This document shows positions 1-19,670 of a DNA stretch of 64,000 nt, piece after piece. The position numbers and the translations under genes were made by a program. The notes beneath the pieces were generated by a model. It was not told the origin of the DNA, made no database searches, and saw nothing but the letters and a program-made list of their open reading frames with translations. The stretch is from an uncultured Pseudomonadota bacterium. Its GTDB lineage: Bacteria; Vulcanimicrobiota; Vulcanimicrobiia; Eremiobacterales; Eremiobacteraceae. Positions within the stretch are counted from its first letter, which is position 1. Each line of letters opens with the position of its first letter. The DNA is taken from NCBI GenBank assembly GCA_963736005.1, contig CAVTNB010000001.1:672001-736000 (forward strand), written 5' to 3'.

Positions 1-1
1 G

Positions 2-526
2 CATGCCGATCAGTGCCCGAGCTGCGCCGTCCTGCTCGCCGAGGCTATGAGGACCGCCGCAGCCTTAGAGCCACCGGGTGAACGAACTCTGGTGACGCGC
101 ATTTCTTCACGACAACCTCGCCGCATCGCCCCGTGGATTGGGTCCTTCGTGGCCGCAGCAGCCTTAATAGCGCTTGCGATCTGGAATATCGACCTTCGCT
201 CGAAGATTTTTCCTGTTCCGATTGCGTCCCTCGTGCATAGTCACTTCCAGCATCACGAGCTGCACGGAATCGTAGGCTCGGCCAAAGTCATTCAGGCGCT
301 GGATGGTAGTTGGCTCTATCTGGTTGGAGATGAGCTCGCTCCGCGCTCGACTTATTATCTCTGGGAAGTCGTTGGAGGCAAAGAGCGTGAGGTGGGATCG
401 TTTGAAACGAACTCTAGCGGACAAGCTGCAGCATACTGGGGGTCATCCCCCGCGAAGATTCAAGCGCTGGTCGTGAGCAGCGCGCCGGGTGAACCGAGCA
501 ACGGGGGCGACCTGCGCTGGCCCTAA
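2..526 (+). CDS. Zinc-finger anti-sigma factor, RskA-like (5' truncated by window edge)
   Basis: The frame is open from nt 2: HADQCPSC is an HxxxCxxC (ZAS) motif, followed by one TM segment (WIGSFVAAAALIALAIW) and a C-terminal domain with YYLW...VGSF...LVVSSAP resembling RskA. Confidence 0.75.
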   Translation, partial: HADQCPSCAVLLAEAMRTAAALEPPGERTLVTRISSRQPRRIAPWIGSFVAAAALIALAIWNIDLRSKIFPVPIASLVHSHFQHHELHGIVGSAKVIQALDGSWLYLVGDELAPRSTYYLWEVVGGKEREVGSFETNSSGQAAAYWGSSPAKIQALVVSSAPGEPSNGGDLRWP

Positions 527-894
527 AGGTTCGTTGCCTTGTTGGCGTCTGCGTTGCTCGCTTGCGAGCTTAAGGCGCGGAGGGCGTTCGCAGTGCGGAT
601 TGTTGCTCTGAGCCTGAAGACAACCATGACGATGACCCCGACAAAAACTATCGCTACCCCGGGAGTTGCATTGCTCAAGTTGGCCGAGAGGTCGCCAAAC
701 TTCAATCCGAGATCCATGCTCCCAGTGAAGCCCTTGAAGATGATGATGACTCCGACAACCGCCAAGAAACCGCCCACCAGCGTACCGATGAGGCTATTCC
801 AAATCTCGGCGCTAATTAACTTTCCGGCGGTGACTGGATCCAGACCACCAGGAACTTGAACGTCGAAGGATCGTACTGGCGGCGGCCCTTGCAT
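523..894 (-). CDS. Small membrane protein with two TM helices
   Basis: ATG at 894 preceded by AGAGGA. Two hydrophobic stretches: LIGTLVGGFLAVVGVIIIF and GVAIVFVGVIVMVVF. Confidence 0.6.
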   Translation of the reverse strand: MQGPPPVRSFDVQVPGGLDPVTAGKLISAEIWNSLIGTLVGGFLAVVGVIIIFKGFTGSMDLGLKFGDLSANLSNATPGVAIVFVGVIVMVVFRLRATIRTANALRALSSQASNADANKATNL

Positions 895-935
895 TTCGCA
901 TCCTCTTTCGCCTGAAGTGCATATTGTCCGGTTTA

Positions 936-1538
936 TTACAAAATCGCGGGCTCTGGTGCGATGGGCCACGGATTACGCACCGCCATCCGGCGCATTCGCG
1001 CCGGGTAGGTCCCGTTTGGACGGGCGCGCATCCAATCTTCTGAAAGCACCGCCAGGTACTCGAAATTCTCCCAAAGCGCGACATTGCCAGTAGCCTCGCG
1101 AGCCAACCCGAGGAGTTTTTCCAACCTCGTCCAGTTGCCCGCAATAACCCACGAATAGCGATCAAGAAAGATGCTCTGGTCGACAACGCCATTCTTGACA
1201 AGGATGCCAAGCTCTTCGTACGAGTTACCAACGAGGTTTACCGCTTTGTGCAGTTCCTCGTATTCTGGTTTGACGTCTGGAGTCGCGTGACGGCGATCCA
1301 GCGCGACATTATACTCGCGAAAAAGCGGATCATTGAGCGCCGCCTCGAGCTGCTCCCTCACCAACGTTTGGGCATCCGAAAATCGCTTCGCGCTAAATTC
1401 TTCACCGATGCTCAGCATGGCGTTGATTTGATTTCCGGCACGCAAGTGCCGTAATTGCACGAGCGCTGCGACAGCAGCTGCAGCCACAATGAGTACCGTT
1501 ATGACGGTGCCCAGAGTATTAATGAGTTCGAGCGACAT
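936..1538 (-). CDS. DUF4760-like membrane-anchored protein (paralog 1 of 4)
   Basis: GGAGG SD before ATG 1538. N-terminal TM, then QLRHLRxxNQ, NSYEELG and ENFEYLA..W...P.G.YP...RM motifs shared with three ORFs at 61-62.7 kb. The family name is from recall. Confidence 0.7.
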   Translation of the reverse strand: MSLELINTLGTVITVLIVAAAAVAALVQLRHLRAGNQINAMLSIGEEFSAKRFSDAQTLVREQLEAALNDPLFREYNVALDRRHATPDVKPEYEELHKAVNLVGNSYEELGILVKNGVVDQSIFLDRYSWVIAGNWTRLEKLLGLAREATGNVALWENFEYLAVLSEDWMRARPNGTYPARMRRMAVRNPWPIAPEPAIL

Positions 1539-1782
1539 GGCGACCTCCAATGATAATGAGAGAGTAGCCCCCCTCTAATCGGGCCCGGCGCGAACACCAG
1601 TGGCGCAGGAATTTGGGTAGCTGGGCTGTGCCACCTACGATACACTTGCCTACCCTCCCAAGAGGCGTTTACAAGCGCGACGCAGATTGGCGAGACTCCA
1701 TAAGAAAGCTACGCAAAGGGCAAGAGCAGCTAGGCGCTAGGTCCTGCAGCGAGGTTGCAGAAAGCACAGCCCGGAGGTGCGC

Positions 1783-2913
1783 ATGCTCAACCTCAAGCGC
1801 GCTGGCATTGTCTGTTTGGCGCTCACCTTGTTTCTTACGCAACATTCGACTGCTGCAATGGTGCAACCCACGCAGCCGTCGACATCGACCGCTCAGCCCG
1901 TACCGAGCGGACTCGTTGTCGTCATAAGAAACACGCCGCAAAGTGGATCATTGGATGCACAAGCATTGAATAACCCCTACATTAGCGGCGTGGCGTTGCA
2001 GATCCATTGGAGCGACATCGAACCGGTTGAAGGAAAACCAGATTGGTCGAAGCTCGATGCACTGTTCGCCGCTGCGGAATCATCAAAGAAATGGGTGCAG
2101 CTCTGCATCTATCCTGGCTTTTTTACGCCTGCGTGGGCCCTGAAGGGCGTGCAGACCGACCTCTTCCCAATTCCATATGGACCATACATAGGTAAGGTCG
2201 AGAGCCTTCCGATGCCCTGGGATACGATGTACCTTAACCGTTGGTTTGCATTCCTGAAACTACTGAGCGACAGGTACGGAATGTCGTCCGCTTTTCGAGT
2301 GGTCGCAGCTGACGGGCCAACATCGGTTTCGCCAGAGTTCACATTGCCAAACTCGCCACAGGACCTTAAGCAGTGGCAAAATGATGGTTATACGCCATCT
2401 AAATATCTCGGAGCATGGCAACTGGTCTTCCGAGCATATGCCGCCGATTTTCCTCGTCAGTACTTTTCTTTGTCCACGGGGACTGGTCTTAGTATTAATG
2501 ACCAAGGTAAAATTGATCCTCGTGAGCATTTGCAAACGAGACAGGCACTGGTTAACGAAGCGAATGCTCTCTTGGGACGCCGATTTGCGCTTGAGATGGA
2601 CGATGTCCATGCAGGCTTGGGTGCTCACACCCCCAATTCACAGATGGAAGATCAATTTATTATCGGTTATAACGGACGTAGTATCACCGGTTTTCAAATG
2701 CGCACCTCTGCCGAACTCGACAGCCGAGGGATGGGAGCTGCGGGCGATCCTCCGCTGGCTTTGCGAAGGTCAATCGATTTCGCGATGGAGCCGAACAGTG
2801 TCGGGCAGCATGTAAACTATCTGGAAATCTACGAACCCGACGTCCGCGCCGATGACTTGCAATCAACGCTGCGCTATGGAGCATCGCTGTTCGCGCCTCG
2901 GGCCACGCCCTAA
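1783..2913 (+). CDS. Secreted glycoside hydrolase-like protein (GH42/beta-galactosidase-like TIM barrel)
   Basis: GGAGG SD, signal peptide, and motifs WSDIEPVEGKPDWSKLD, TPAWAL, PMPWD...W, YLEIY. Confidence 0.6.
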   Translation: MLNLKRAGIVCLALTLFLTQHSTAAMVQPTQPSTSTAQPVPSGLVVVIRNTPQSGSLDAQALNNPYISGVALQIHWSDIEPVEGKPDWSKLDALFAAAESSKKWVQLCIYPGFFTPAWALKGVQTDLFPIPYGPYIGKVESLPMPWDTMYLNRWFAFLKLLSDRYGMSSAFRVVAADGPTSVSPEFTLPNSPQDLKQWQNDGYTPSKYLGAWQLVFRAYAADFPRQYFSLSTGTGLSINDQGKIDPREHLQTRQALVNEANALLGRRFALEMDDVHAGLGAHTPNSQMEDQFIIGYNGRSITGFQMRTSAELDSRGMGAAGDPPLALRRSIDFAMEPNSVGQHVNYLEIYEPDVRADDLQSTLRYGASLFAPRATP

Positions 2914-4103
2914 TTCTGAGCTGGCCCGTGCAATTGCTCAGGATTGCCACAAAAAATGCGGCCAATCATGTTCCACACATTGCGACACAAGTTTGCCAGG
3001 GCACTTGCTCGACAAAACGTCCACCCTCGGATCGCTCAAAACTTACTTGGCCTTTCAGACCCTCGGCTGACAATGGCAATCTATAGCTCACGCCGATTTC
3101 TCTCGATCTTGTCCCGATAGAGATCGAAAGCATCGCTCTGCTTGCAGTGGCGTTTTGAGCCTTTCGCACCAGCGTGAGCGACGTCCGCCCTGCTAAAATA
3201 GCCACAATCGCTTGGTGTTTACGAAGCGGTTCGGGCGCGATGAGGCGCTCTCTCCAGAAAACCAAAGGAGAACTTCCTCATGTATTCGACACCGAAAATC
3301 ATCGCCTCACTCGACGTGCGACTGCTCTTAGCCGACGCGGTTGGTACCGGCAGTTGTACAGATCCCGCCGGTTGCGGTTAATGGCGAAAGCCTAGACAGC
3401 TCGAAGCATTGGGCTGATCGGAGAGGGCACCGCGCTAGCGGTGCACTCTCCATTTTCTTAGCTCCCGCCACTGAAGGAAGCGCTCAAGGTCTAGTCGCCG
3501 ATTCGCGCGATCTTCGCCCGATATGGATGGGCCCATCAACGTGCCTGGCCGTGCTCGTAAACTCGCGGCATGCACGGTTCCTGGCATAACGGGCCGATAG
3601 TCGGTGCAACGCCGACAATACGCCTTTGCCCGGTCGCGTACGACGCACTGTACGGTGGCTGCATAGGCGACCTCGTTCGTCTGAATGAGCAGAATCGAAA
3701 ACCAGACGTCGCAAAGCATTTGGTTTACTAGGAAACGAAAATTAAATTCATTCGCAGTTACTCTGCTCAATGTTCGAGGAACGGCTAGCAATCGAACGTT
3801 TACGAAAATGGCTTAACTATGAATTTGGCAGCTCCGATGAGCGCGGCAAAGCACGCAAAGATACGTACGAGCGGCAACTTTCCGAGGCGCGCCTTGTTCA
3901 TGGACGCCTGAGGAATCTGAAGTAGAAAGCTGCGAACACCAAGACAATGCCAATATTCACCGTCAGCCGTTCCCAGAATCGGTTTCTGAAGAACGCGAAA
4001 TCTACAGCGACTATGACGGCTACCATCGCCACCAGGTACAGCACGACAACTAGACGCAAGATCTGGCCCCATTCGCGCTCAAATTTTCGCCAGCGGTCAA
4101 CAT

Positions 4104-4322
4104 GTGCTAGGTAGCGTGCGGCAACGAAAATCGACTGTCCTTTTCCGCTGGTATCTACGCAACGCCGTGAGTTCTGACGTTACGGTCGCAGCCGTCAACC
4201 CAGCCTCAGCGCCGGCGGTCAAAGATCCAAACGATTCTCGAAAGTCGGTGACGTTCACCGTAACTCCGGTCGCGCCGGGCACGTGAACGATTACGGTTAC
4301 GGACAAGCAGGGCACTAATTAG
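4104..4322 (+). pseudogene. Fragment of an Ig-like surface-protein repeat interrupted by TGA
   Basis: Reads ...SVTFTVTPVAPGT*TITVTDKQGTN*. The beta-strand pattern continues across TGA 4284-4286. No convincing start or signal peptide. Confidence 0.4.
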
Positions 4323-4576
4323 GGGCGAAGCCAAGAGTATACGTTTCAACCGCAAGGGTGAGCCCGTTCTTGTAACAGTCTCGCCTCTCGTGCAGTTACA
4401 AGCAATCCGGGACGATTTTAGGATGACGTTAGGCATTTAACCAAGCGCCTCACAAACCCGCATTTCCTGTCTTTTCCAAGAAAAGGTTAGACAGAGGTTA
4501 GATTCGCGCTGTCAAGTGCGCCTGTCAAGAGCCGCGAAGTCTTAGCAAACCGTTATGTGATAAGCGAAAGATTGGA

Positions 4577-4648
4577 AGCCGACGGAGGGATTTGAACCCC
4601 CGACCCGCGGTTTACAAAACCGCTGCTCTACCCCTGAGCTACGTCGGC
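4577..4648 (-). tRNA. tRNA-Thr(UGU)
   Basis: Reverse complement GCCGACG-TAGCTCAGGGGTAGAGC-AGCGGTT-TGT-AAACCGC-GGGTC-GGGGGTTCAAATCCCTC-CGTCGGC-T. Acceptor, D, anticodon and T arms all pair. Confidence 0.97.
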
Positions 4649-4702
4649 ACGCTGCCCACGAGTGTTTCGGTTCTCGTGCGATGGAACCTAGCTCGGATGC
4701 TC

Positions 4703-6487
4703 CTACGCAGGCTGAGTCTGCGTGTCTGCGAGCCGAGTTCGCAATGACTCGATTTCTCTCGTTGCCGAGTCGAGGATTTTTCTCATCGCTTCGGCATCCA
4801 GATGATCGTACGCCGCCGCCGCGCCGGGTGCGAGACCGGCAATCGCCTTGGTCTCATCCGGGTCGAGCGCTTCACCACGAATGTGAGCGCCATAAACTAC
4901 GATCGCTGCAAGGTTGCGACGAACAATGATAGGAAGCGCCAAGACGGGATGCGCCGGACCCGAAGGCACACCTTGAGTGCGCCACGGATGATCGTCCAGT
5001 GACAGCGGCCCGTTCTCGGTCTGCAACAGCATCAAAAAGTGCGCGTCATCGTCGTCCAATCTCGAAACATCGCTTAGCGCCCATCCCTCAGACGCCTCGC
5101 GGACGTATATGCCATCGTTACCGCGTCGGAAAAGGGCCGCAGATGCAAGGGACAGCGTTCGCACTGGTTCGCTCACCAATGCCTGTGCGACAGCTCCCGT
5201 CGTCGTGGCTGAAGGGAGCGCCGCAGCATTGCGAGCAAGCTGCACTTCTGCCCGATGACGCTGGCGGAAAAACGTCGCGTCAATGAGCGTTTCGACGCGC
5301 CGGTGCAGGCTATTGAACCAAAAGCCGACGCCGATCGCCACGCCTACCTCTGCGATCGTACCTAACCGTGCCAGCTTGAGCTTGTCGAGGAAGAACCAGT
5401 CAATGACTGAGAAGACGCCGACGAGCAACGTCGTGAGCAGGGCATACACAAGAGTACGGCTCACGACAAAGCTTACGTCGATGACACGATGCTTTATGAC
5501 CGCGTAGGCAACGGTGAGGGGCACAACGACGCTGACGAGGCTGAGGCTTGCATAGAACCAATACGGCAGGTTGAACTTGGTAAAAAGAAGCACCATGCGA
5601 GCCACAAAAACGATCCCAAAACCAAGGACGACCCAGCGTATGCGCTGCCTGTCATTTCCATCAGAGTGTAGGTAGGTGCCAATGAGCGCAAACAATGCGA
5701 GCAAAAACACAGCCCCGGCTAAGACGAAGATGAGGTTGAGGGTAGCCTCAGCCGGCCAACCAAACCACTCGCTGCCCAATAGCCTGTAGGTGCCAAGTCC
5801 CCAAAGAACGAGCACGAGAAATGGGGACCAGCGACAAATTAGCCGTCGCCAGCCGCCGAATTCTTTCCGTAAGAAGACCGCGCAAAAGACGGCCAGGCCC
5901 ACAGCGCCCGCGGCGAGCAGATACACCGAAACAATATCGGAGATAACGCCCCAAGGCGGACCCAGCACATACGACTTCAAGCTGGCAGGCGCCCCGTTCA
6001 ATCCGAGACAAAAGGCATAAAAAGCCCACGTCGTGATTGATGGACGCAGGAGCACCAACGCGGCTCCGATACCGACAAAAAGCAACACAGCGAATTCTCG
6101 TACCACAATGAGAGTCTGCTTGGCAATCCCCATCGTTTCTGGTTCGCTCACCATCGCCACGTAGCGGCCGCTCGAACCGCTTCTAATTGCCACTACAGCA
6201 CGCTGTCCGGGCAAGGATGTTCCCCCACTCGCGACCACCTCCCGATATTCGGGCTTCGTCGCTGCGATGTCGATCCGATCGCCGACGTTCAGCCCTGCGC
6301 GAGAAGCCGGAGAGTCTGGGTACGAAGCTGTGATGACGTTGTCATCATCACGCACGTAGCCGAAATCTCCCTCAGGTTGCCAAACCCTCCGGATGTCGGG
6401 CAATGAAAACACCAGAACCAGTGCGGCCAAGAAGAGCACCGCGAACGTTCGTAAAGCGGCTTTGCTCGATATTGTGTCTATAGCCAT
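4703..6487 (-). CDS. PDZ + multi-TM + GAF-like membrane sensor without output domain (paralog A)
   Basis: N-terminal TM; PDZ signature DSPASRAGLNVGDRI; about 8 further hydrophobic helices; PLTVAYAVIKHRV; GAF-like LALPIIVRRNLAAIVVYG; short coiled-coil C-terminus. AGGAG SD. Confidence 0.8.
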   Translation of the reverse strand: MAIDTISSKAALRTFAVLFLAALVLVFSLPDIRRVWQPEGDFGYVRDDDNVITASYPDSPASRAGLNVGDRIDIAATKPEYREVVASGGTSLPGQRAVVAIRSGSSGRYVAMVSEPETMGIAKQTLIVVREFAVLLFVGIGAALVLLRPSITTWAFYAFCLGLNGAPASLKSYVLGPPWGVISDIVSVYLLAAGAVGLAVFCAVFLRKEFGGWRRLICRWSPFLVLVLWGLGTYRLLGSEWFGWPAEATLNLIFVLAGAVFLLALFALIGTYLHSDGNDRQRIRWVVLGFGIVFVARMVLLFTKFNLPYWFYASLSLVSVVVPLTVAYAVIKHRVIDVSFVVSRTLVYALLTTLLVGVFSVIDWFFLDKLKLARLGTIAEVGVAIGVGFWFNSLHRRVETLIDATFFRQRHRAEVQLARNAAALPSATTTGAVAQALVSEPVRTLSLASAALFRRGNDGIYVREASEGWALSDVSRLDDDDAHFLMLLQTENGPLSLDDHPWRTQGVPSGPAHPVLALPIIVRRNLAAIVVYGAHIRGEALDPDETKAIAGLAPGAAAAYDHLDAEAMRKILDSATREIESLRTRLADTQTQPA

Positions 6488-6502
6488 ACGCTCCTACGCG
6501 AG

Positions 6503-7138
6503 CTACATACCGCCGTAGAGGCCCAAGGTTATGTACACAGCATGGCCGTCGCGAAAGACGACGACGCCGAAGTGGGCGCAGCGCTGGGGCTTCGGGCAAT
6601 TCTTCAAGACCGATAATGCTGAAGTGTGAGCGTCCAAGCGTTTGGCGGCGGAGGCCGAAACGCCGAAGTCGCTGGCCGCTTGACTCGGTGACATGCCTAA
6701 TTTCAGACCGCGGACGGATACCACTCCGGAAAGGTTGCGCCCGGGAATTTTGGACGGAGGCGCAGCCGCGTAGGCGATCAGGTCATCCCATCCACCATCA
6801 TCATTGTAGGCCGTACCGGCAGCGATACGGTGGACGCTGTCATACACCCAACTCGACCCTGCCCCAGCGGTCGGAAGATCGACTCCAGGGTATCCCAGAC
6901 CGTTTTGACCGCGCTTGCTCCATGCTTCGTATGGAATCGATCCAAAATGATCGGCCACCATTGTCGACGCCGTCGTGAGCGAGCCCGCTTGCCACGCCAT
7001 GGGCGTTGTTTTCTCGGCCCAGGAGACCAGTGCGTCAGTTGTGTCTGCAGCGGCGATGCTCGTACAAAGTATAGCAGCGAAAAACGCAATGAGACTGCGC
7101 ACGCGTGAGCGCGAAGCTTTCAGGCCTCCATGAAACAT
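6503..7138 (-). CDS. Secreted hypothetical protein
   Basis: Signal-like LIAFFAAILCTSIAAA. C-terminal GLKLGMSPSQAASDFG...FRDGHAV resembles BLIP/SmpA-like folds (inference). Ends 15 nt before paralog A. Confidence 0.7.
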   Translation of the reverse strand: MFHGGLKASRSRVRSLIAFFAAILCTSIAAADTTDALVSWAEKTTPMAWQAGSLTTASTMVADHFGSIPYEAWSKRGQNGLGYPGVDLPTAGAGSSWVYDSVHRIAAGTAYNDDGGWDDLIAYAAAPPSKIPGRNLSGVVSVRGLKLGMSPSQAASDFGVSASAAKRLDAHTSALSVLKNCPKPQRCAHFGVVVFRDGHAVYITLGLYGGM

Positions 7139-7282
7139 GAAACTTGGCCCTCCGTCATGACCGCGGAGAATTATGAGGATACGGTCGAGCGCTTAGGTTC
7201 GAGCGATGGTCCCCTAGAGCCTCGTAGTTCGACGTGACGATTGAGCGAGGCGTCAGCTTGCAAATGGACGGTCGAAAATCGA

Positions 7283-8104
7283 CTATTGCGCCAACTCGTG
7301 GGCCGTAAACTTCTCCGGATACGGACTGCCCCACTGGCCTGTCATTGTTATGTTGCCGCCGCTTCCATGAAGGCCGCAATAATAGTGGCCAGACTCATAG
7401 CTGCCTACTTGGAACTCGAAATACTTCACCCCGCCTTGTGTAAAACCGCCTGTGAAGGGACTAGTTCCGGTGACGACTCCATCTTTGTTAAATACCGCAA
7501 GAGTGCCTGAAAACTCACCCTTGTCGCTCTCGCTTGTAATACGGATTTGTTCCTGGAAGACGCCGTCGTCGCTCGTAAGCTGCCACGTCCCGATGAGGTT
7601 GGGATACGATCCGGAGGAGGCCGTCGTGCTCTCAAGACGATCAACCGCGCGGGCGAGCATGCCGCGAGAATCCTCGATATTGGAAAGCTTCACAGTGATT
7701 TCGCGGCTCTGATCTTGCAGCGCCTTGAGAAATAGCTTTTGCGTAGCGACGATGTGCGCGCCGGCCTGCGCTGCTTGCTTGGATGTAATTTGACCCGTGA
7801 ACACCATCATCGCGATCTCGTCCACGAGACGTTGGCGGTCGAATTCGAGCGGTCCGATTTCGAGCGGTCCAGCGATTTCAAATCCGAAGAGGACGCCTTT
7901 CCCGCTCTTCACATCCGTTATGCGAGTTTCGACGAACTGCTGCTCTTCTTGAAGAACCTTCTCTTCCTCGTTTAGCCTAGCGATTTGCGCTTGATAGTTC
8001 TTCAGTTGCTGGCTGTTGTCTGCGCCTGCTGCTATGGAGCCCGACCCCAATACAAACAAGGCCATAGCGGTAACGAGGCCAAACAGAACGCGACTCGATA
8101 GCAT
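7283..8104 (-). CDS. Secreted hypothetical protein, coiled coil plus small beta-rich C-terminal domain
   Basis: Signal peptide; heptad-like QLKNYQAQIARLNEEEKVLQEEQ; Ser/Thr linker; LIGTW followed by alternating beta strands. Confidence 0.7.
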   Translation of the reverse strand: MLSSRVLFGLVTAMALFVLGSGSIAAGADNSQQLKNYQAQIARLNEEEKVLQEEQQFVETRITDVKSGKGVLFGFEIAGPLEIGPLEFDRQRLVDEIAMMVFTGQITSKQAAQAGAHIVATQKLFLKALQDQSREITVKLSNIEDSRGMLARAVDRLESTTASSGSYPNLIGTWQLTSDDGVFQEQIRITSESDKGEFSGTLAVFNKDGVVTGTSPFTGGFTQGGVKYFEFQVGSYESGHYYCGLHGSGGNITMTGQWGSPYPEKFTAHELAQ

Positions 8105-8121
8105 CAGGGGCTTCAGCGTCT

Positions 8122-8511
8122 CTAGTTAGGAATCGCCCAGAAGTCGTTATCTTTGTCGGTGAAATCGCTGCCCGGTGAGTAGCTGCAAAAGTCGATGGCA
8201 TACCATGTGCGGGATGTTCCATCGGACCAATGCACGTTCACGTTGTACGTCGTGTCAGCAGCGCAGACATCTTGATCTATCGTCACCGCTTGGTAGTCCG
8301 ACGTGAATGCGGGGATGGTTGGGTCAGATCCATCGTTGAGAAGATTCGTGCTCCAAGCAGACGGTGTGTGGTTTGCATCGAGCGTTTGGAGGTAAAACCC
8401 ATTCAGAATGGCGCTGTAATGGTTGTCAACGCCTATCGTGCTGTTGGCGAGCGCAATTGATGGGGCAAGAAGCATTACTGCTGCGCACACCACGATGAAT
8501 GACCTCTTCAT
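8122..8511 (-). CDS. Small secreted two-Cys beta protein
   Basis: MKRSFIVVCAAVMLLAPSIALA signal peptide; W..NLL, C...YNV.V.WSDG and IDFC pattern. Confidence 0.7.
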   Translation of the reverse strand: MKRSFIVVCAAVMLLAPSIALANSTIGVDNHYSAILNGFYLQTLDANHTPSAWSTNLLNDGSDPTIPAFTSDYQAVTIDQDVCAADTTYNVNVHWSDGTSRTWYAIDFCSYSPGSDFTDKDNDFWAIPN

Positions 8512-8609
8512 GATGTATTTATCGGGTTCGCCGCAGACTCTTTCGAGCGTGCCTCCTATCACATTCTTGGCAGCGAATCCACGTGGCAAGGCCGAACTAA
8601 CCGCCAGCG

Positions 8610-10493
8610 ATGGTAGCTAGCCCACAGCTTGTTTCTCGCTCGGTCGTGAGGACGTTTGTCGTTGCGGCCCTTGCTTTATTGGTCGTCATCACGACGCTGC
8701 CTGGCCTGAGCTTTGTGTGGGACTCAACCGATGCCGCGTGGGGCTCCGATGGGGAACTCGGCTTTCAGTCCGACTACGATGGCAACGTCAAAGTCGTTGC
8801 CCCAGACTCCGCCGCAAGTCGAGCCGGCATTGTCGCTGGAGATCGCATAGATCTCTTTCGAACTCCCTTTGACTCGCGTGCCTACGTGGCCGGTTCGCCA
8901 GCGAGAGTTCCGGCGGGCACGCACGTGATGGTGTGGGTAAACCATCGGGGCGTTGATCGCCTCGACGAGCTCGTGCCGACACACGAGACCTACCCGCCGA
9001 TCGCAAAGCTCAACTTGGTCAGCAGAACCATCGCCGCGCTGATCTTTGTGGTGGTGGGTGGGTTGCTTGTCCTCTTGCGCCCAAGCCCAATGACCTGGGG
9101 GTTCTATCTCTATTGCCTAGGCTTTAGCCCGGGCATCGCCTTTGCTGGTTTCTCTCGTTTTCCATCGCCAACGATGCACGCCATAAACATCATTGGTGGG
9201 GACTTGCTCACGGCAGCCGGCACCGTCGGCATTCTTTTCTTTGCAATGGGTTTTCTGTGCGAAAATCCGGCGCCGTGGCGGCAACGTGTTGAGCGCGCTA
9301 TTCCCATTCTCTTCGTCCTTTTTGCTCTGCTTGTGACCTATCCTGATGTCGCAAACTTATTGCTCGGCTGGCCGGCGGAGTTGGCGCAGCGCATCATGCT
9401 GACGCTTCAGGGTGCGGTCTTCGCGCTGAGCATCATCGCCGTGTTCCAGACCTACATCCACGGGCAGCCACAAAACCGCCCGCGGATCCAGTGGGTCGTC
9501 GTTGGACTCCTTGTCGGTATTCTCGGAACGTATGTTGGGAGTCTGCTCGCGTTTAGCTCTGCACTGCCATTCACCACACCACGCTGGTTCCAAAGCTCGT
9601 TGCTCGTGCTCAATGTGACTTTGCCGTTAACGGTCGCTTATGCCGTGGTGCGGCATAGGGTTTTCGAAGTGAGTTTTGTGGTCAGCCGGGCGATCGTCTA
9701 TGCGATCTTGACCTTCATGATCGTCAGCACGTTTGCGCTGATCGAATGGTTCGTCGGTCAGGAACTTGCGGCAGCGCGCCTCGCGGTGTTTATCGAAATC
9801 GCCGTGGCCGTCGCCATCAGCTTTTGGGTGAACTCGCTCGAAAAGCAGGTCGGAAAGCTCGTCGATGGTATCTTTTTCCGCCGGCGTCGGGAGGCGTTGC
9901 AGCGAATCGAACGAGACGCAAACGCCGTTCATCGCGCGCGCGAGCAAAGCACCGTTGATGGATATGTCGTGAATGAAGCAACGACAGCGCTCGCTCTTTC
10001 TTCTGCTGCGCTTTTCCGCCGAAATGATGACGCCGTGTATGGACGGGTCCTCGCGTGCGGCTGGCCCGAAAATTCAGTGTCGTCCATCGATCACGAGGAC
10101 AAACTCGTGTTGACGCTTGAGTCTGAGTGGGAACCGCTGCGCATCGCAGAAATCGGTTGGCAGCACACGGGAGTGCCAACCGGGAACGTGGCACCCGTGC
10201 TCGCGGTGCCGCTGATCGCGCGACAAGCCCTTTGCGCTTTCGTTCTCTACGGGCCGCATTCCAATGGCGCCGATGTCGATCCCGAGGAAGTGCAGCGGCT
10301 CTTTCGCCTCTGCCGCGCAGCCCAGGCGACCTACGACGAGTTGCAGGTCGAGACGATGATGAAGCTCATTGAAGAGCTTCGCAATGAGGTCACGCGACTG
10401 CAAAATGGTGCGACAAGCATGGCGCCCGCAAGAGGCGCGATATCCCAATCGCCCCCTACAGCATCGTCGCAGGTCGCGCCCGGATCTGCGTGA
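8610..10493 (+). CDS. PDZ + multi-TM + GAF-like membrane sensor without output domain (paralog B)
   Basis: DSAASRAGIVAGDRI; LVLLRPSPMTWGFYLYCLG; RIQWVVVG; PLTVAYAVVRHRVFEVSFVVSR; PVLAVPLIAR; YGPH..G...DPEE. All colinear with 4703..6487. Confidence 0.8.
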   Translation: MVASPQLVSRSVVRTFVVAALALLVVITTLPGLSFVWDSTDAAWGSDGELGFQSDYDGNVKVVAPDSAASRAGIVAGDRIDLFRTPFDSRAYVAGSPARVPAGTHVMVWVNHRGVDRLDELVPTHETYPPIAKLNLVSRTIAALIFVVVGGLLVLLRPSPMTWGFYLYCLGFSPGIAFAGFSRFPSPTMHAINIIGGDLLTAAGTVGILFFAMGFLCENPAPWRQRVERAIPILFVLFALLVTYPDVANLLLGWPAELAQRIMLTLQGAVFALSIIAVFQTYIHGQPQNRPRIQWVVVGLLVGILGTYVGSLLAFSSALPFTTPRWFQSSLLVLNVTLPLTVAYAVVRHRVFEVSFVVSRAIVYAILTFMIVSTFALIEWFVGQELAAARLAVFIEIAVAVAISFWVNSLEKQVGKLVDGIFFRRRREALQRIERDANAVHRAREQSTVDGYVVNEATTALALSSAALFRRNDDAVYGRVLACGWPENSVSSIDHEDKLVLTLESEWEPLRIAEIGWQHTGVPTGNVAPVLAVPLIARQALCAFVLYGPHSNGADVDPEEVQRLFRLCRAAQATYDELQVETMMKLIEELRNEVTRLQNGATSMAPARGAISQSPPTASSQVAPGSA

Positions 10494-12745
10494 GAGCGAT
10501 GCGTCACTGGATCGTCGCGGTGTTGGGTATGCTTATGATCGCGTCTTTGCCGATCATCGCTTGGGCTTTTAACGATCAGACCGATAAGGTCACGGCGGTC
10601 GAGGCAAGCCAGCCTCTTCCTCTAGAGGGCAAATTGACAAACCCTGTCTGGCAAACCGGTGCAGTCGCCAAAGATTTTGTCAATTTCACAACGCGCCGGC
10701 CGGCGGCCCCCGAGGTGGCGACCACAGTCTACATCCTCTACGATGCCACGTATTTGTATGTAGGCTTCGTGTGCAATCAAGCCTCAGCCACCATCACCGC
10801 AAATCAGATCACAAATGGCGTGGGCGAAGAACTCGATGACCAGGTAGAAATCAACATTGATACGAGTGGGAACGGAACACGCGTGTACACATTCAAAACG
10901 ACTCCGAGAGCAGCTCGCTATCAAGATTCAAGCGAGTCCAACCGTTTTGATCCTCCGTGGCAGGCAGCGGCAAGCATACAACGAGCGAGCTGGTCTGCTG
11001 AGATGATCATCCCGCTCAAGGACTTGCGCGCCGCGGGCGGAACGCAAATCTGGCGCATCAACTTTCAGCGCCGGATCGCCGCTTTGGACGAATCCTTCTC
11101 GTGGGCATACAGTCCCCAGATGTCGAGCCCCGACCAAAGCCAATACTGGCCCGCGCTCACCGGCATTCGTATCGCCGGCAACTCGACTCGCCCCCTTCCG
11201 CACGCGGACATCTACGGTTTGGCAAGCATGGGTTCCGACCGCAATCAGTTTCAGCAAACCGACGGCTCGTTTGCCTTTCAGAAAGTTCGTGACTTCGGCG
11301 CGGATATGACCTACCCGATGACCAACACGCTGGCCCTCGTAGGCACTGCAAACCCCGATTTCTCGAACGTCGAGGTCGACCAGCAAACAATCGCACCGCA
11401 ACAGTTCCAACGCGTGTTTCTCGAATACCGGCCATTTTTTGCCGAGGGCTCCGACTATCTCATCCCCGGAGCTCACTTCAACTCGAGCGGAACAAAAGAC
11501 GAGATATTTTACTCACCGAGCATCGGAACGTTCAACTGGGGCGCTAAGATCGAGGGCACCATCGGATCGAATTCCCTTGGCGTGCTCGATACTGCTGGGC
11601 CCGGTTTCAATGACCAGGCGTTTGGCATCGACCACACCTCGTCATCGCAAGATTTCCGGCTCTTCGCCGACGGCGTCATGGCCCATCACACCCAGGATGG
11701 ATCGAGTGTCACGCCATGTCCGGGTATCTTGCTCACCTGTCATGACAACACGTATGAATTCGGGCTTCACAAGCAACTGCTCGCCACCGGTTGGTTGGCG
11801 AATCTTGCCTACGGGGGAGAGTCAGGCGATTTTGTTACAAATCCAAGTCTGGGCCACAGCTTCGTCGGGCTCTTTGGTCGCGAGCGACAGTACTCCGACG
11901 TTTACTTCATCTATCATGACATCGGACCGCACTACGCCCCGGTAGACGGATTTACGCTCTTGAGTGACGTTCGCGGCCCCGGCCTGTTTTCCGACTTTAA
12001 CGGTGTTGGAAAGCCGGGTGAAGCCATCAAGAACTATTTCGGTTTCTTTGGCGGGGAGCGTTCGGTCGACCGCTCTGGACAGGTTGCCTATGCATCGGCC
12101 TACGCTGACCTCACGCTCAATTTCAAGGATCTGATGACCCTCGACGTTGGACCTTCGATAAGCGAGCAGAGAACGAGCAATGGGTATCCGTCTTATACCG
12201 ATTCGCAAACGCTACCCTACAATCAGACGCACGTCGCACTAGGCTACGCCGAACAGTCGGCCTCCCCGGTCTCAGTGTCGTATTCGTGGGGACCCTTTGC
12301 GACGCTGTGCTCGGTGCCGGCAAGCGCCACAACGCCAAATCCGCTGTTTTGCGGGCCATTTTCGAACCTGTACGCGAACTTCTACCTTCAGCAATTCACG
12401 TCGGCATGGGCGCGGCAGTTCGACACGCGATTCAACATTTCAGCCGAATTTGACGGCACGGATGAGCGAGCGTTCGTTGGGCCAAGCGACGGCCAGTGGC
12501 TCCGTCGAATCTCACTTGGCGAGAACCTGGGACCGAATGCGAGTTTCTCAATTGGACTGCGATCGATCAGCGGCACTGGCGGATTCGCGGAACCAGGTTT
12601 GAATTTTGCTGCGTCACTCCACGACAAATTTCCAACCGGCAACGAATTGTTTGTCGCTTTTGGGTCGCCAGCGTCCTCGATCACCTTAAACCGGGTCATC
12701 GTCAAATACATCCTGCATATCGGGCAGGGCGGTACCGGCACCTAA
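10490..12745 (+). CDS. CBM9-like / DUF5916-like exported protein, probable outer-membrane beta-barrel
   Basis: Signal peptide; LEGKL..PVW, YDATYLYVGF, WSAEMIIP, WRINFQR (CBM9-like); TANPDFSNVEVD...EYRPFFAEG (DUF5916-like); amphipathic beta strands. GTGA overlap with paralog B. Confidence 0.75.
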   Translation: MRAMRHWIVAVLGMLMIASLPIIAWAFNDQTDKVTAVEASQPLPLEGKLTNPVWQTGAVAKDFVNFTTRRPAAPEVATTVYILYDATYLYVGFVCNQASATITANQITNGVGEELDDQVEINIDTSGNGTRVYTFKTTPRAARYQDSSESNRFDPPWQAAASIQRASWSAEMIIPLKDLRAAGGTQIWRINFQRRIAALDESFSWAYSPQMSSPDQSQYWPALTGIRIAGNSTRPLPHADIYGLASMGSDRNQFQQTDGSFAFQKVRDFGADMTYPMTNTLALVGTANPDFSNVEVDQQTIAPQQFQRVFLEYRPFFAEGSDYLIPGAHFNSSGTKDEIFYSPSIGTFNWGAKIEGTIGSNSLGVLDTAGPGFNDQAFGIDHTSSSQDFRLFADGVMAHHTQDGSSVTPCPGILLTCHDNTYEFGLHKQLLATGWLANLAYGGESGDFVTNPSLGHSFVGLFGRERQYSDVYFIYHDIGPHYAPVDGFTLLSDVRGPGLFSDFNGVGKPGEAIKNYFGFFGGERSVDRSGQVAYASAYADLTLNFKDLMTLDVGPSISEQRTSNGYPSYTDSQTLPYNQTHVALGYAEQSASPVSVSYSWGPFATLCSVPASATTPNPLFCGPFSNLYANFYLQQFTSAWARQFDTRFNISAEFDGTDERAFVGPSDGQWLRRISLGENLGPNASFSIGLRSISGTGGFAEPGLNFAASLHDKFPTGNELFVAFGSPASSITLNRVIVKYILHIGQGGTGT

Positions 12746-13032
12746 GGCGAGAGCAGGTTCGAGCGAATCGTGATTGGTCGGTAATCGGCATCTCCGACCG
12801 AGGCTGATTTTATGACGTGCAGATCGCGAGGCGCGTAAAGGTCGTTCTCATGGCCGGCGGGGCACATGATCGAAAAAGCGCTGCGCAGGTCACGCTCCTC
12901 GACCGGTAACTTCACAATCATGCCGTCAGGGTAGACAACGTCGGACGTCCGTCCTTCTACCACGATCAGCTCACCGCAATCGGGCTCGGCGCATTTCACG
13001 TCGTGTCGGTAACGCACTCGTAAGTAATGCAT
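12742..13032 (-). CDS. Small hypothetical protein with possible metal-binding Cys/His pairs
   Basis: CAEPDC and CPAGH motifs in 96 aa. Confidence 0.5.
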   Translation of the reverse strand: MHYLRVRYRHDVKCAEPDCGELIVVEGRTSDVVYPDGMIVKLPVEERDLRSAFSIMCPAGHENDLYAPRDLHVIKSASVGDADYRPITIRSNLLSP

Positions 13033-13228
13033 CTATATTAGTAATCGACCAGCTCGCCGCTCGATATAGCCCCGACTTTACCGGCCTGCGTGGTTGGGTT
13101 AACGATCGCTCTCTCCTCAGCGCCCGTACCCATAATGTGCGGGACGCTTGCTGCTGCACAGACGATCCGATACCCGCAAAATAATGAAGCGGACGACGTC
13201 ACCGTCGCCCGCTCCGTGCGTTTTGAGT

Positions 13229-13876
13229 TTAGTAGAGCTCGACTTCGCTAAGATTCTTCTCGATCTTACGCTTGACGCGCTGGAGCGCGTTGTCGATCGA
13301 CTTGACATGGCGGTTAAGATCCCGCGCCATCTCTTGATACGACTTGCCTTCCAGATAGCTCAGCAGCACCTGCGACTCGAGATCGCTGAGGTTCTCCTGA
13401 ATGCGCTCCTTGATATCTTCCGAAACTTCCTGGTTGATCACCAGTTCCTCGGGATCCGACATCTTGGCGCTTGCCATCACGTCGAGCAGGGTCCGCTCAC
13501 TATCTTCATCATAGATGGGCTTATTGAGCGAGATGTACTGATTCAGCGGGATGTGTTTCTGCCGCGTCGCTGTCTTGATCGCGGTAATGATTTGGCGCGT
13601 GATGCAGAGCTCCGCGAAGGCCCGGAACGACGAGAGCTTATCCGCGCGAAAGTCGCGAACAGCCTTGTAGAGTCCGATCATTCCCTCTTGAATGATGTCT
13701 TCTCGGTCTGCACCGATGAGAAAGTAGCTCTTAGCCTTGATGCGGACGAAGTTCTTATATTTGTTGAGCAGGAACTCCATGGCGAGGTTGTCGCCACATT
13801 TGGCTGCATTTACGAGTTCTTCGTCGGCGCGCTCACTGTAGTCGTAGGTCTCTTCTACCGGGTGAAGTGCCCCCAA
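13229..13876 (-). CDS. sigH: RNA polymerase sigma factor SigH
   Basis: KAKSYFLIGADREDIIQEGMIGLYKA, TAIKTATRQKHIPLN, KSIDNALQRVKRK; canonical position after rlmB. Confidence 0.95.
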   Translation of the reverse strand: MGALHPVEETYDYSERADEELVNAAKCGDNLAMEFLLNKYKNFVRIKAKSYFLIGADREDIIQEGMIGLYKAVRDFRADKLSSFRAFAELCITRQIITAIKTATRQKHIPLNQYISLNKPIYDEDSERTLLDVMASAKMSDPEELVINQEVSEDIKERIQENLSDLESQVLLSYLEGKSYQEMARDLNRHVKSIDNALQRVKRKIEKNLSEVELY

Positions 13877-13932
13877 AATTGTTTTCTACCCCCTAAATTT
13901 GGCTGCCCCAGCCGCCCTGGCAGTCCTACCCG

Positions 13933-13961
13933 ATTATATGTTCGGGCCTCGATTTCGTCAA
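13933..13961 (-). promoter_or_regulatory. Sigma70-type promoter of sigH
   Basis: TTGACG-17 nt-TATAAT on the minus strand, 56 nt upstream of the TTG start. Confidence 0.8.
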
Positions 13962-14022
13962 GTTTTGGGCCGTGTTTTCGGCTTGTTTGCCTGCGTCACA
14001 ATGTCCGAGACACCCTTGACAA

Positions 14023-14076
14023 GGGCGACTTGACAGTCGCCCGCTACGTTTGGGCGACTTGCCAATCGCCCCCTAC
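14023..14076. repeat. REP doublet (type A + type B palindromes)
   Basis: gggcgacttgacagtcgccc-g-ctac, then gggcgacttgccaatcgcccc-ctac. Confidence 0.9.
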
Positions 14077-14813
14077 AGTTTCTTCGCCGCTTCAAAGAGG
14101 ACGATGGCTGCTGCGCTTGCTGCATTGAGCGATCCGACGCGACCTCGCAATGGAATCCGCACCAAAGCATCGCATCGCTCGCTCACTAAGCGTGACAAAC
14201 CCTTGCCCTCTGCACCGACAACCAAGACGCATTTTCCCGTGTAATCTGCTGTATCGTACTCCTGCGCGGTCGCGGCTGGCGAGAGGCCTGTGACCCAACA
14301 TCCATCCTCTTTGAGTGCCATCAGTGCAGCGACGATATTCGGGACACGAGCAATCTTCAGGTGAGATGTGGCTCCGGCGGCGGCCCGGCGCGTGACCGCG
14401 GTAACAGCGGCGTTGCGGCGATCTGGCATCACCACGGCATTCGCTCCCGCGCCCTCGGCATTGCGCAACACGGCCCCAAGATTCTGCGGATCCTCGAGAT
14501 GATCGATGGCAACGATCAAGGCCTTGCTCGCCTTGCGCACCATCGCTCTGACGTCTGCTATGGGAGTATATGCAAAGGCAGGCAAATCTGCCGCGACGTC
14601 TTGATGGCCTTCTCCCCGACCGAAACGACGATCGCCAGTCGGCACCTCGAAATCAACGGGGATTCCTTGCGAGCGCGCCGTCGCGATTAACGCGGCAAGC
14701 TTTGGATCTTTTTCTCTGTGCTTGGGGACGCGGATGCGCCGGAGCGCCTCGCCTCCCTTAAGCGCTTCGTCAACCGCGTGAAAGCCGTAAATACGTTCCT
14801 CATCGGTTCCCAT
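14073..14813 (-). CDS. rlmB: 23S rRNA Gm2251 methyltransferase
   Basis: IYGFHAV, HQDVAA, DPQNLGAVLR, VVGAEGKG, SLNAASA (SPOUT motifs); follows cysS. Confidence 0.93.
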   Translation of the reverse strand: MGTDEERIYGFHAVDEALKGGEALRRIRVPKHREKDPKLAALIATARSQGIPVDFEVPTGDRRFGRGEGHQDVAADLPAFAYTPIADVRAMVRKASKALIVAIDHLEDPQNLGAVLRNAEGAGANAVVMPDRRNAAVTAVTRRAAAGATSHLKIARVPNIVAALMALKEDGCWVTGLSPAATAQEYDTADYTGKCVLVVGAEGKGLSRLVSERCDALVRIPLRGRVGSLNAASAAAIVLFEAAKKL

Positions 14814-16251
14814 CAAGAGCCCATTCACTGCCGGATTTGAGATCCCGCACATTGACGCCAGCCGATGCAAGCGCGTCGCGCAACCTGTCCGAGGTAGCAA
14901 AGTTCTTCTTGGCCCGAGCCTCTTCACGCAACTCGAGAATGCGATTGACAAGCGCCGCGCCATCCAATTCGCCGTCGCCCGCGAGCGCCCGCAGTAGATC
15001 GCGTTGCGCCGGCGCCAACTCAACCCGACGCGCAACGGGCCAGCCGGCTTGCTCCGCTGTGGCGGGTAATCCCAAAACACCCAGGCAGCGCTCCACGATC
15101 GCAATCGTGTTGCCGGCGGACCGGGGGTTGGCGATCGCGCTCGTGCGCCCTTCGCGCACTTTCGTCTGAAGCCAGCCGAGGGCCCCAGCGGTATTGAGAT
15201 CGTCATCAAGAAAGGCATCGAATGCCGTCGCATCGATCGGGCCCGTTCCACCGATAGCGGCGTGGGACCGCAGCGCGTTGAGCTCCTCGTACAAACCCCG
15301 AAGACCCTTGGCTGCTGCTTCGAGCGCCGCTATCGTAAAGTTCGACGGCTTGCGGTATCCGGTTTGAAGAAAGAGATAGCGGACCGCTGCGGCACGATGC
15401 TGTTGCAAGAGCTCGCGCATGGGTATGAAATTTCCAAGCGACTTGCTCATTTTTTGCCCGTCGACGTTCAGCAACCCGGCGTGAACCCAGAAACGCGCCA
15501 TTGGGTGTTTCCCGGTTGCTGTTTCCGTTTGAGCGATTTCATTCTCGTGATGCGGGAAGACGAGATCCGCCGCTCCGCCGTGGAGGTCGAACTGATCTCC
15601 GAGATAGCGCTTGCACATCGCGGAGCACTCGATATGCCAACCCGGTCGCCCGGGGCCCCAGGGGCTCTCCCACGTCGGCTCGCCCGGCTTCGCCTTTTTC
15701 CAGAGGGCAAAGTCAAGTGGATCGCGCTTTTCCTCACGCACCGCGATGCGTTCGCCGGCGCGCAGTTCGTCCAAATTGCGGCGGCTTAGCTCGCCGTAGT
15801 GCGAGTCCCGCGCGACTGCAAAATAGACGCCGTCACTTGTCTCGTACGCCGCTTCGGATGCGACGAGGCATGCGATCAGACTTGTGATTTCGGGCATCTC
15901 CTGCGTTGCTCGGGGAGAGCAGCTGGGTTCCAGCAAACCAAGCGCTTCAGCGCACTCCTCAAATTCCCCATAGTAACGAGCCACCACGTCATTCCAAGGC
16001 ACCTTGTCCTTTGCTGCGCGATCGATGATGCGGTCATCAATGTCGGTGACGTTTCGGATATAGTTGACCTCGATGCCCTTGGCCCGCAAATGGCGGACCA
16101 AAATGTCAAACGTTAGAAACGTGCGCGCATGACCGAGGTGCGGGTGAAAGCTTGGGGTCATCCCGCAAACATACATCGACACGCGGCCAGGTTGCATTGG
16201 CTCGAACGTTTCGACTTTGCGGGTCAGCGTGTTAAAGAGTTGGAGAGCCAT
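14800..16251 (-). CDS. cysS: Cysteinyl-tRNA synthetase
   Basis: [33 protein letters not shown]. Confidence 0.97.
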
Positions 16252-16903
16252 GACTCGATTCCGCGCTGCGTCGCATTTCAAGCGCATCGATGCGCGCGTT
16301 GAGCGCGGCGAGCGCTTCGCTGGTTGGATCCGGCATGTCGACTTGCGGAATGATCGGTTCTTCGACTTTCTTACCGTCGACAAACACCAGCCTACCAGGC
16401 ACCCCTACCACCGTGCTATTGGGAGGCACCGACTTCACCACAGCGGCACCGGCGGCGACTTTCGAATTGCTCCCGATGACGATGGCGCCAAGGATCGCTG
16501 CTCCCGCACCGACGACGACGTTGTCTTCGAGGGTTGGGTGTCGTTTGCCGTGCTGGAGGCTCGTGCCGCCAAGGGTCACGCCTTGGTAAAGGGTGCAATT
16601 TCTGCCGATCTCGGTTGTCTCTCCAATGACCACACCCATGCCGTGATCGATGAACAATCCGGCGCCGATCTCCGCCCCCGGATGGATCTCAATGCCGGTA
16701 ACAAAGCGCATGATGTGCGAGAGCAGGCGCGGCAGAACTGGAATATGCCAGCGGTAGAGCGGATGAATGAATCGATGGGCGACAACGGCATGGAGGCCGG
16801 GATATGCTAGGAGCACCTCAAGCCAGTTGACGGCGGCGGGATCGCGCTCGAAGCATGCTCGCCAGTCAGCCTGCACTTGTCTGAAGATGGAATCGCGTTT
16901 CAT
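16232..16903 (-). CDS. cysE: Serine O-acetyltransferase
   Basis: [32 protein letters not shown] hexapeptide repeats. Confidence 0.96.
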
Positions 16904-16961
16904 GGTAGTCCTGCCTCGCCCGTTGTGACGTTGGTTCGCGAGTTCATTCGCGACCGTAGAA

Positions 16962-16991
16962 AGGATGAAGGGCGCTTAAGCGCCCTGTCAA
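16962..16991 (-). promoter_or_regulatory. Possible cysE promoter containing a perfect 18-bp palindrome
   Basis: TTGACA-18 nt-CATCCT; AGGGCGCTTAAGCGCCCT at 16969-16986. Confidence 0.45.
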
Positions 16992-17074
16992 CAGCAACAG
17001 CGGCAGGACTGTATCAGACTTTTGGAAGTGGGCGGCAACGGCCGTGCGGCTCTGTGCATCTGGATGCCACCTTC

Positions 17075-18571: not shown

Positions 18572-18585
18572 CGCCTGACGTCTTC

Positions 18586-18612
18586 GGGGCGATTTTCCCA
18601 ATCGCCCCCTAG
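18586..18612. repeat. REP type B
   Basis: ggggcgattttcccaatcgcccc-ctag. Confidence 0.9.
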
Positions 18613-19160: not shown

Positions 19161-19186
19161 GGGGCGATTTTCCAATCGCCCCCTAC
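19161..19186. repeat. REP type B filling the whole ispF-ydeI spacer
   Basis: ggggcgattttccaatcgcccc-ctac. Confidence 0.92.
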
Positions 19187-19656: not shown

Positions 19657-19670
19657 TGTAGATCGCCCCC

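Follow-up and report, generated by a model that had tools for sequence, protein, structure and literature searches.

Two paralogous receptors without output domains, predicted to carry a G protein-coupled receptor-type fold, may signal through a separate regulator in an Eremiobacteraceae bacterium

A 64,000-nucleotide stretch of contig CAVTNB010000001.1 (assembly GCA_963736005.1, positions 672,001 to 736,000 of the forward strand; hereafter the window) from an uncultured soil bacterium of the Eremiobacteraceae was analysed, in which two genes for membrane receptors without an output domain, here called A and B, lie close together. Receptor A (4703..6487, minus strand, 594 amino acids) and receptor B (8610..10493, plus strand, 627 amino acids) are both open, colinear and divergent, as an earlier note made from the sequence alone had described, and are 38% identical over 592 amino acids (E 4e-119). 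The three minus-strand open reading frames (ORFs) with signal-peptide-like N-termini that the same note had placed between them were found at 6503-7138, 7283-8104 and 8122-8589, and encode the secreted-type proteins s1 (6503..7138, 211 amino acids), s2 (7283..8104, 273 amino acids) and s3 (8122..8511, 129 amino acids), the likely start of s3 being the ATG at 8511 because a stop lies upstream of it in the sister-genome ortholog. The CBM9/DUF5916-like gene said to overlap the stop of B was also present; this gene, D (10490..12745, plus strand), encodes a 751-amino acid exported protein (CBM9_1/DUF5916) and starts at 10490, B ending at 10493. Outside receptor A, a tRNA-Thr(TGT) gene (4577..4648, minus strand) marks the edge of a variable gene island, and B is the resident gene of this tRNA-Thr/sigH locus in the family.

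Receptor A comprises a first transmembrane helix (TM1), a PDZ domain, a seven-helix (7TM) bundle with a predicted G protein-coupled receptor (GPCR) fold, a further helix pair (TM9/10), a GAF domain and a coil, and B has the same architecture. The AlphaFold model of A (pLDDT, the predicted local distance difference test score, of 83) contained TM1, the PDZ domain, nine more helices, the GAF domain and a final helix, giving ten membrane helices with seven in a GPCR-type fold, which goes beyond the earlier note. On the minus strand, the PDZ domain (6143..6376, residues 38-115) is predicted from topology to be non-cytoplasmic, as it is for ComP in the available part of PMC9620489. It is followed by TM2-TM8 (5462..6142, residues 116-342), by the TM9-TM10 hairpin (5303..5458, residues 344-395), which is the weakest part of the model (pLDDT 50-70) and is strongly conserved between paralogs, and by the GAF domain (4784..5266, residues 408-568), the fold of which matched 3trc, the PtsP GAF domain (Z 15.8, root-mean-square deviation (rmsd) 3.4, 158 residues aligned). 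The free coiled-coil tail (4706..4798) ends in a conserved C-terminal motif, QTQPA in A and QIQPA in the family, and A is placed in what we call the QxQPA clade. The PDZ domain, GAF-like domain and coiled coil read from the sequence earlier were all borne out, with PDZ_6 detected in 41 of 46 aligned members, DegP and RseP PDZ domains matched in the PDB, GAF_2 detected in 18 of the 46, and a/d heptads in the tails of both A and B.

When folded alone, TM2-TM8 of A gave a pLDDT of 87.5 and a predicted template modelling score (pTM) of 0.84. All 50 VIA matches for this model were GPCRs (Z 12.4-15.1, rmsd 3.4-4.7, 206-226 of 227 residues aligned; the best was a galanin receptor at rmsd 3.9), as were all 50 Foldseek matches (E 0.006-0.04). 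It is because the matches are uniformly GPCRs, rather than because of the height of Z, that TM2-TM8 is predicted to have the GPCR superfamily fold, a seven-helix bundle with GPCR connectivity across the domain. At the level of sequence no 7tm family was found among the Pfam matches of the 46 members, and the 60 best PDB sequence matches were all to PDZ domains and none to a GPCR. A conserved His in a YDH motif was considered as a phospho-acceptor and rejected, as one short helix follows it and the fusion proteins described below do not have the His.

The reported lack of a kinase, GGDEF, cyclase or PP2C domain was supported by profile searches, which gave zero such families for A, for B or for the 46-member alignment. 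No output domain was found in another frame past either stop; the same-strand frames listed around the stops, D excepted, encode 58-125 amino acids (judged by eye, with no Pfam scan), and no output can follow either gene because the stop of A lies 55 bp from the tRNA-Thr gene and that of B overlaps the start of D. To see whether homologs usually carry outputs, relatives were collected by a word-based search (8000 candidates of 326-1040 amino acids, 183 of which were relatives; 120 listed, of 342-642 amino acids) and by a full hidden Markov model (HMM) search, of whose 29,122 matches the best 150 were examined, giving 263 distinct proteins when pooled, 259 of which reach the end of the GAF domain. 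Among these listed matches, 254 of 259 stop no more than 70 residues past the GAF domain (median 35), the five exceptions being two MalT-like fusions (P0220, P0228), a fusion to a class III cyclase (P0258), a protein with a tail of 77 residues and a duplicated scaffold. A seemingly long-form member, P0121/L034 (1060 amino acids), was set aside as a duplicated-scaffold artefact. Among longer proteins a search gave seven matches: four were kinases, one was a STAND fusion, one a further MalT-like fusion and one a double receptor in tandem. Outputs do therefore occur in the wider superfamily; the kinase relatives are distant, with E-values of 6e-19 (P0267) or weaker. Continuation into an output domain was seen at 0 of 79 genomic receptor loci, at several of which there are frameshifts inside the gene.

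That the shared truncation is not decay, as had been argued, was upheld by these equally short homologs and by ratios of non-synonymous to synonymous substitution (dN/dS) of 0.116 for B against its ortholog in G002, a genome of the same genus, and of 0.17 for A when compared with its 78% ortholog. A and B are under purifying selection and are intact family members, and we are highly confident that the family is functional without an output of its own.

From the names of its homologs the family belongs to the Eremiobacterota. It was matched in 26 of 31 related genomes (1-13 matches per genome, with six in the source genome, G000), nearly all full-length matches being frames of about 570-770 amino acids, and a profile of the C-terminal half found it in 52 of 61 genomes; these genome tallies take in G008, G011 and G013, which are flagged unpublished. 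Outside the class, 2 of the 301 genomes searched from another phylum gave matches, and look-alike clusters of similar length were seen in Acidobacteriota in the Atlas. The source genome (84% complete) contained the six short receptors only, with no output-bearing version of the hairpin-GAF module and no sensor-less hairpin-GAF transducer. A plasmid collection gave no match to A, and PADLOC anti-phage profiles gave 0 families for A, B, s1-s3 and D. The family is large and apparently has no earlier description: the open-access literature, supplements excluded, gave no account of an output-less family, although members may well appear in the 7TM catalogue that supplements PMC13581589, and there was nothing on such a family in the accessible portion of PMC7159879 or under the terms searched in bioRxiv 10.1101/2024.01.09.574750. 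Several homologs are of unusual form or setting. P0264 holds two receptors in one chain of 1224 amino acids, at L050, L055, L066 and L097 three to five divergent receptors are arrayed in tandem, and P0239 and P0251, from a clade of receptors without a coil, have an N-terminal HTH_29, which we take to be transposase-like, and are possible one-component membrane regulators. Two vertically kept receptor loci, both subsets of L041-L077, have the orders Lon protease-permease-receptor-oxoacid oxidoreductase-groEL (about 13 loci, names by eye) and secDF-recG-like helicase-receptor (about 7 loci, names by eye except for the helicase).

Comparison of A with its paralogs at C1:659450 and C1:1650630 of the source genome gave identities of 31-38% in the PDZ domain and 35-39% in the 7TM bundle, whereas TM9/10 was 67-85%, the linker 76-85% and the GAF domain 67-75% identical. 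These three paralogs end in QTQPA, QIQPA and QIQPA, and are the only ones among the 2832 called genes of the source genome (3/2832) to end in Q-x-Q-P-A; the same ending was found in 68 of the 259 homologs among the matches listed, and is kept in tails that are shorter by some 7 and 14 residues, roughly one or two heptads. B falls in a different clade from A, with 40% identity in the GAF domain and no QxQPA motif. As the sensor is variable and the inner module conserved, different ligands and, within each clade, a shared downstream partner would be suggested, the pattern being as expected if varied receptors feed one transducer.

Candidate partners were sought in gene neighbourhoods and fusions. 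In a tree of C-terminal halves (83 rows, from 72 locus proteins, six source-genome proteins including A, and six fusions or outgroup proteins, with frameshifted and partial rows excluded) gene contexts were clade-specific. The coil-less receptor clade adjoins SARP-type STAND genes (Trans_reg_C + AAA) in divergent, tandem and convergent orders, and among the 20 top-ranked SARP-STAND loci a receptor flanked 8, two of them on both sides. Loci where such a regulator lies beside or between coil-less receptors include L136-L140, L145, L146 and L151. Receptors fused to a MalT-like WHD/Trans_reg_C/BTAD half were seen in P0220, P0265 and L087; a four-sequence profile of this C-terminal half found no stand-alone counterpart lacking the nucleotide-binding domain in the source genome or in the 79 loci. 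The hairpin-GAF module is also found without the sensor, at the head of an NB-ARC STAND protein; the N-terminus of this protein matches the family profile at E 5e-21 and is on that basis homologous to the inner module of the receptors. Such two-TM (2TM)-GAF-STAND proteins were present in at least 20 of 151 genomes of the class (frames of at least 900 amino acids), with 20 of 20 fetched loci confirmed. Membrane-anchored STAND proteins of 2TM-GAF-NB-ARC-TPR type are encoded at L094:4093-6861, L095:327-3203 and L156-L175, with up to seven matches in a single genome.

The source genome has 11 cyclase-STAND loci, two SARP-type STAND genes and one MalT-like STAND gene. Of 51 receptors in six genomes, 7 had a cyclase-STAND gene within 5 kb (1.9 expected, 3.7x), 10 a DUF4760 gene (1.95 expected, 5.1x) and 4 a gene of the CBM9 family (0.87 expected, 4.6x); phosphoesterases were near 1 of 28 (1.17 expected). 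The neighbour enrichment is real but not specific, because island genes cluster. The DUF4760 family has 18 matches in the source genome and is enriched near both receptors and cyclase-STAND genes; one of its genes, at G000:C1:658811-659401, lies in a one-strand run of receptor, DUF4760 and cyclase-STAND genes at C1:655962-661285.

A clue to possible ligands came from another receptor clade, in which 11 of 12 members follow a borosin alpha-N-methyltransferase gene and a small precursor-like ORF, the three forming a tight operon with gaps mostly of a few bases. The methyltransferase matched dbOphM (E 4e-52) and SonM (E 6e-49), and the output-less receptor in this operon is a candidate receptor for the borosin peptide. 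The borosin-receptor operons are at L021-L037 (for example L025:6793-9665). In the source genome, at G000:C2:11293-15002, a borosin-like methyltransferase gene is followed after 39 bp by one for a 935-amino acid ATPase-type regulator, with no receptor.

The genes between A and B showed no conserved pairing with receptors. The arrangement of the window is not conserved: G002 matches the window at 91% DNA identity over 7243 to 13053, and at the tRNA, with s2, s3, B and D present in order, and A and s1 absent, about 100 unrelated bases taking the place of the 2.6 kb A+s1 block (4649..7242). In G001, G004, G010 and G017 the B orthologs are at the same sigH-side locus with unrelated neighbours, and among the B loci read D lies directly behind B only in the source genome and G002. 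Homologs of s1 were found in 20 of 151 genomes, s2 in 2 of 151 (the source genome and G002 only) and s3 in 3 of 61. No receptor was present in flanks of up to 1.5 kb at 22 other s1-homolog loci or at 2 distant s3-homolog loci, no s1-s3 match was found in the 79 receptor loci, and s1, s2 and s3 had no Pfam family above the cut-off and no NCBIfam or PADLOC family. The divergent receptor pairs that recur at L015 and L040 have other genes in between. The dN/dS values of s2 (0.15) and s3 (0.06), with s2, s3 and D ranging over 0.06-0.15, indicate that these three are real genes under selection; as a group the genes between A and B look like island cargo and chance neighbours. Secreted-looking genes, which the earlier note expected as consistent and variable neighbours, made up 18 of 125 genes beside receptors and 438 of 2631 genome-wide, by a crude signal-peptide rule and with the source genome alone as background. 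Of the split-receptor idea in that note, the absence of decay and a partner encoded elsewhere remain part of the reading we favour, and the PDZ domains reading co-encoded secreted proteins does not, given the A+s1 block missing from G002, the lack of conserved pairing and the lack of secreted-neighbour enrichment.

We propose, with a probability of about 0.5, that A and B are enzyme-less GPCR-fold receptors which signal by contact with a separate soluble regulator, most likely a STAND-type ATPase. Signalling in trans is in itself probable; a STAND protein as the partner, suggested by fusions and neighbours, has slightly less than an even chance. For A and B themselves, we infer both ligand and partner. 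An outside ligand would bind the PDZ domain and the 7TM pocket, and could be a peptide or peptide end that differs for each paralog, as ComP and the borosin operons suggest. The receptor would be a dimer in which the ligand shifts TM9/10 and the GAF/coil, as may be supposed from kinases with this input, and the shifted GAF/coil surface would then bind or release a SARP/MalT-like or cyclase-bearing STAND protein, of the kinds seen in fusions and neighbours. The conserved hairpin-GAF-coil module would thus be the direct contact part for a regulator encoded elsewhere, with the C-terminal QxQPA motif of the A clade possibly sharing in STAND binding or release, and the outcome of STAND switching would be transcription or cAMP.

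Several observations weigh against this proposal. Five of the 8 SARP-adjacent loci had prompted the idea, leaving a fresh share of 3/15 against roughly 0.4-0.8 expected by our own density estimate, and a receptor was in the flanks of only 1 of 20 2TM-GAF-STAND loci. A and B fall outside the SARP-linked and borosin clades, and neither a close member of the linked SARP-STAND family nor a 2TM-GAF-STAND protein was found in the source genome, the latter being absent from its genus also. Shared islands can explain the proximity of cyclase-STAND genes, because it is no stronger than that of DUF4760 or the CBM9 family. Kinase or cyclase outputs are present in distant relatives (P0267-P0270, P0258), and the counts from the HMM list are based on the best 150 of 29,122 profile matches. 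For the fold, GPCR Z-scores of 12-15 are near the range open to helical bundles (about 13, per the tool), and Foldseek E-values were no better than 0.006-0.04.

The same receptors might act through a partner that is not a STAND protein, the GAF-coil docking on a membrane-anchored DUF4760 protein or on a soluble enzyme (kinase, cyclase or GGDEF) that bears a GAF domain, which we think unlikely. DUF4760 is the most enriched neighbour of the receptors and is absent from the very three genomes of the f2 set in which no full-length receptor was matched (G022, G023, G027), and soluble GAF-kinase and GAF-cyclase genes exist in the source genome; however, G009 and G018 have 11 and 7 DUF4760 matches without a receptor match, DUF4760 is equally enriched near STAND genes, and no receptor-DUF4760 fusion was present among the long homologs examined. 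It is decidedly unlikely that the receptors do not signal, and instead bind, sequester or move peptides (for example in borosin self-protection or export) with GAF as a regulatory or assembly domain. The missing output, the tight operon with a methyltransferase for a peptide that is ribosomally synthesised and then modified post-translationally (RiPP) and the position of one receptor clade behind an amino-acid permease-like gene (family by eye) would suit such a role, but in fusions the same module drives a kinase, cyclase or transcription activator, paralogs differ least in their cytoplasmic part, and the proteins matched by fold are receptors rather than transporters.

Databases contain full-length relatives that carry a cyclase or kinase output (P0258, P0267), with which A and B could form mixed dimers as decoys or modulators; this is improbable, as the incomplete source genome encodes no protein joining the hairpin-GAF input to an output and the full-length matches in the 31 genomes are nearly all of the short form. 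Highly improbable, too, is the idea that the C-termini of s1, s2, s3 or D serve as co-encoded ligands for A and B. Here s1 is found 16 bp upstream of A, and the two come and go together at the window locus, s2, s3 and D stay with B in G002 under purifying selection, and an s1-like fragment without a clear start (G000:C1:1656889-1657113) lies 4.4 kb from another A-clade paralog (C1:1650630), against which stand the absence of conserved pairing and of enriched secreted neighbours. The chance that the receptors are decayed kinases or assembly artefacts, for which the frameshifts at several loci would speak, is close to negligible; this explanation is already refuted because of the dN/dS of 0.12-0.17, the one end point shared across hundreds of homologs and the conserved C-terminal motif.

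The contact-signalling receptors proposed here resemble several known systems in part. Bacillus ComP, the ComX pheromone receptor kinase of ComQXPA, is modelled with ten helices, a PDZ domain after TM1 and a helix-sheet-helix part before the kinase in the available part of PMC9620489; according to the same part, A and ComP share TM1, an outer PDZ domain, ten helices and, on the cytoplasmic side, a similarly sized helix-sheet-helix subdomain (residues 388-543 in ComP and 408-568 in A). The borosin clade operon, with its order of modifying enzyme, precursor and receptor, resembles comQXP. Unlike ComP, the A/B family lacks the HisKA/HATPase part and a response regulator, and has many receptor paralogs per genome. 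No HisKA_3 or HATPase domain was found at the C-terminus of A or B and no comQ, comX or comA among their neighbours; a ComX profile, for which the control was weak, gave 0 matches in the source genome, and the two Bacillales chromosomes searched gave PDZ-level or weak matches only and no ComX. A and B are not a ComP, as the kinase test failed, yet on their models they are built like ComP minus the kinase. Profile matches to other kinases were weak: the PrsK model (TIGR02916) matched 5 of 46 members, the best at E 1e-9, and on P0258 it covers the membrane-GAF part, and the 7TM-input GAF-HisKA_3 kinase P0267 matched at E 6e-19; unlike PrsK and P0267-type kinases, A and B have no kinase domain, and the family scores far below the TIGR02916 cut-off of 300.

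GPCR-like 7TM domains occur in prokaryotic kinases and diguanylate cyclases, as set out in the available text of PMC13581589; A and B share with these the predicted seven-helix bundle and GPCR topology, but the examples there carry enzymes and A and B do not. The lack of an attached enzyme is a likeness to eukaryotic GPCRs, from which A and B differ in an identity of 6-14% to the matches, three extra helices, and the PDZ and GAF domains. Membrane proteins control STAND or other regulators in trans, as in MalK-MalT, and chemoreceptors carry a C-terminal docking pentapeptide. Output by protein contact, a variable sensor, a conserved signalling end and a terminal motif are features with parallels in these systems, although their folds are unrelated to A and B and the analogy is one of logic alone. 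The observations that bear on a possible ligand-dependent coupling to a separate NTPase switch, as in a functional GPCR, are the fusions and gene neighbours.

Sensors are catalogued by their output (kinase, cyclase, phosphatase or chemoreceptor tip), and an output-less family is invisible to such counts, its proteins being annotated as hypothetical. The family represents a class-wide expansion of a GPCR-fold receptor that, if it signals, must use a separate partner, and offers a model for enzyme-linked 7TM sensors turning into partner-coupled receptors, a candidate borosin-peptide receptor and what may be an upstream input to the lineage's many STAND regulators. It is a tentative and rather doubtful extension that this is a third kind of bacterial transmembrane signalling, in which up to a dozen enzyme-less GPCR-fold peptide receptors per genome, each with a ligand of its own, act in trans on soluble STAND NTPases and switch them by way of a common GAF-coil surface. 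If true, it would be a bacterial parallel of GPCR-to-G-protein logic, and hairpin-GAF would be a portable output module mounted also on intracellular STAND sensors.

Beyond these genes, the part of the window left of tRNA-Thr (1-4570) is a variable island with an RskA-like anti-sigma end (47-526), a DUF4760 gene (936-1550) and a gene for a GH42-like secreted protein (1777-2913); in G002 a cyclase-STAND gene lies inside the same island. To the right, a conserved gene run (13229-20402) holds ispD/ispF-like genes, gltX, cysE, cysS, rlmB and a sigH-like gene, the sigma factor of which matches Bacillales SigH at up to 70%.

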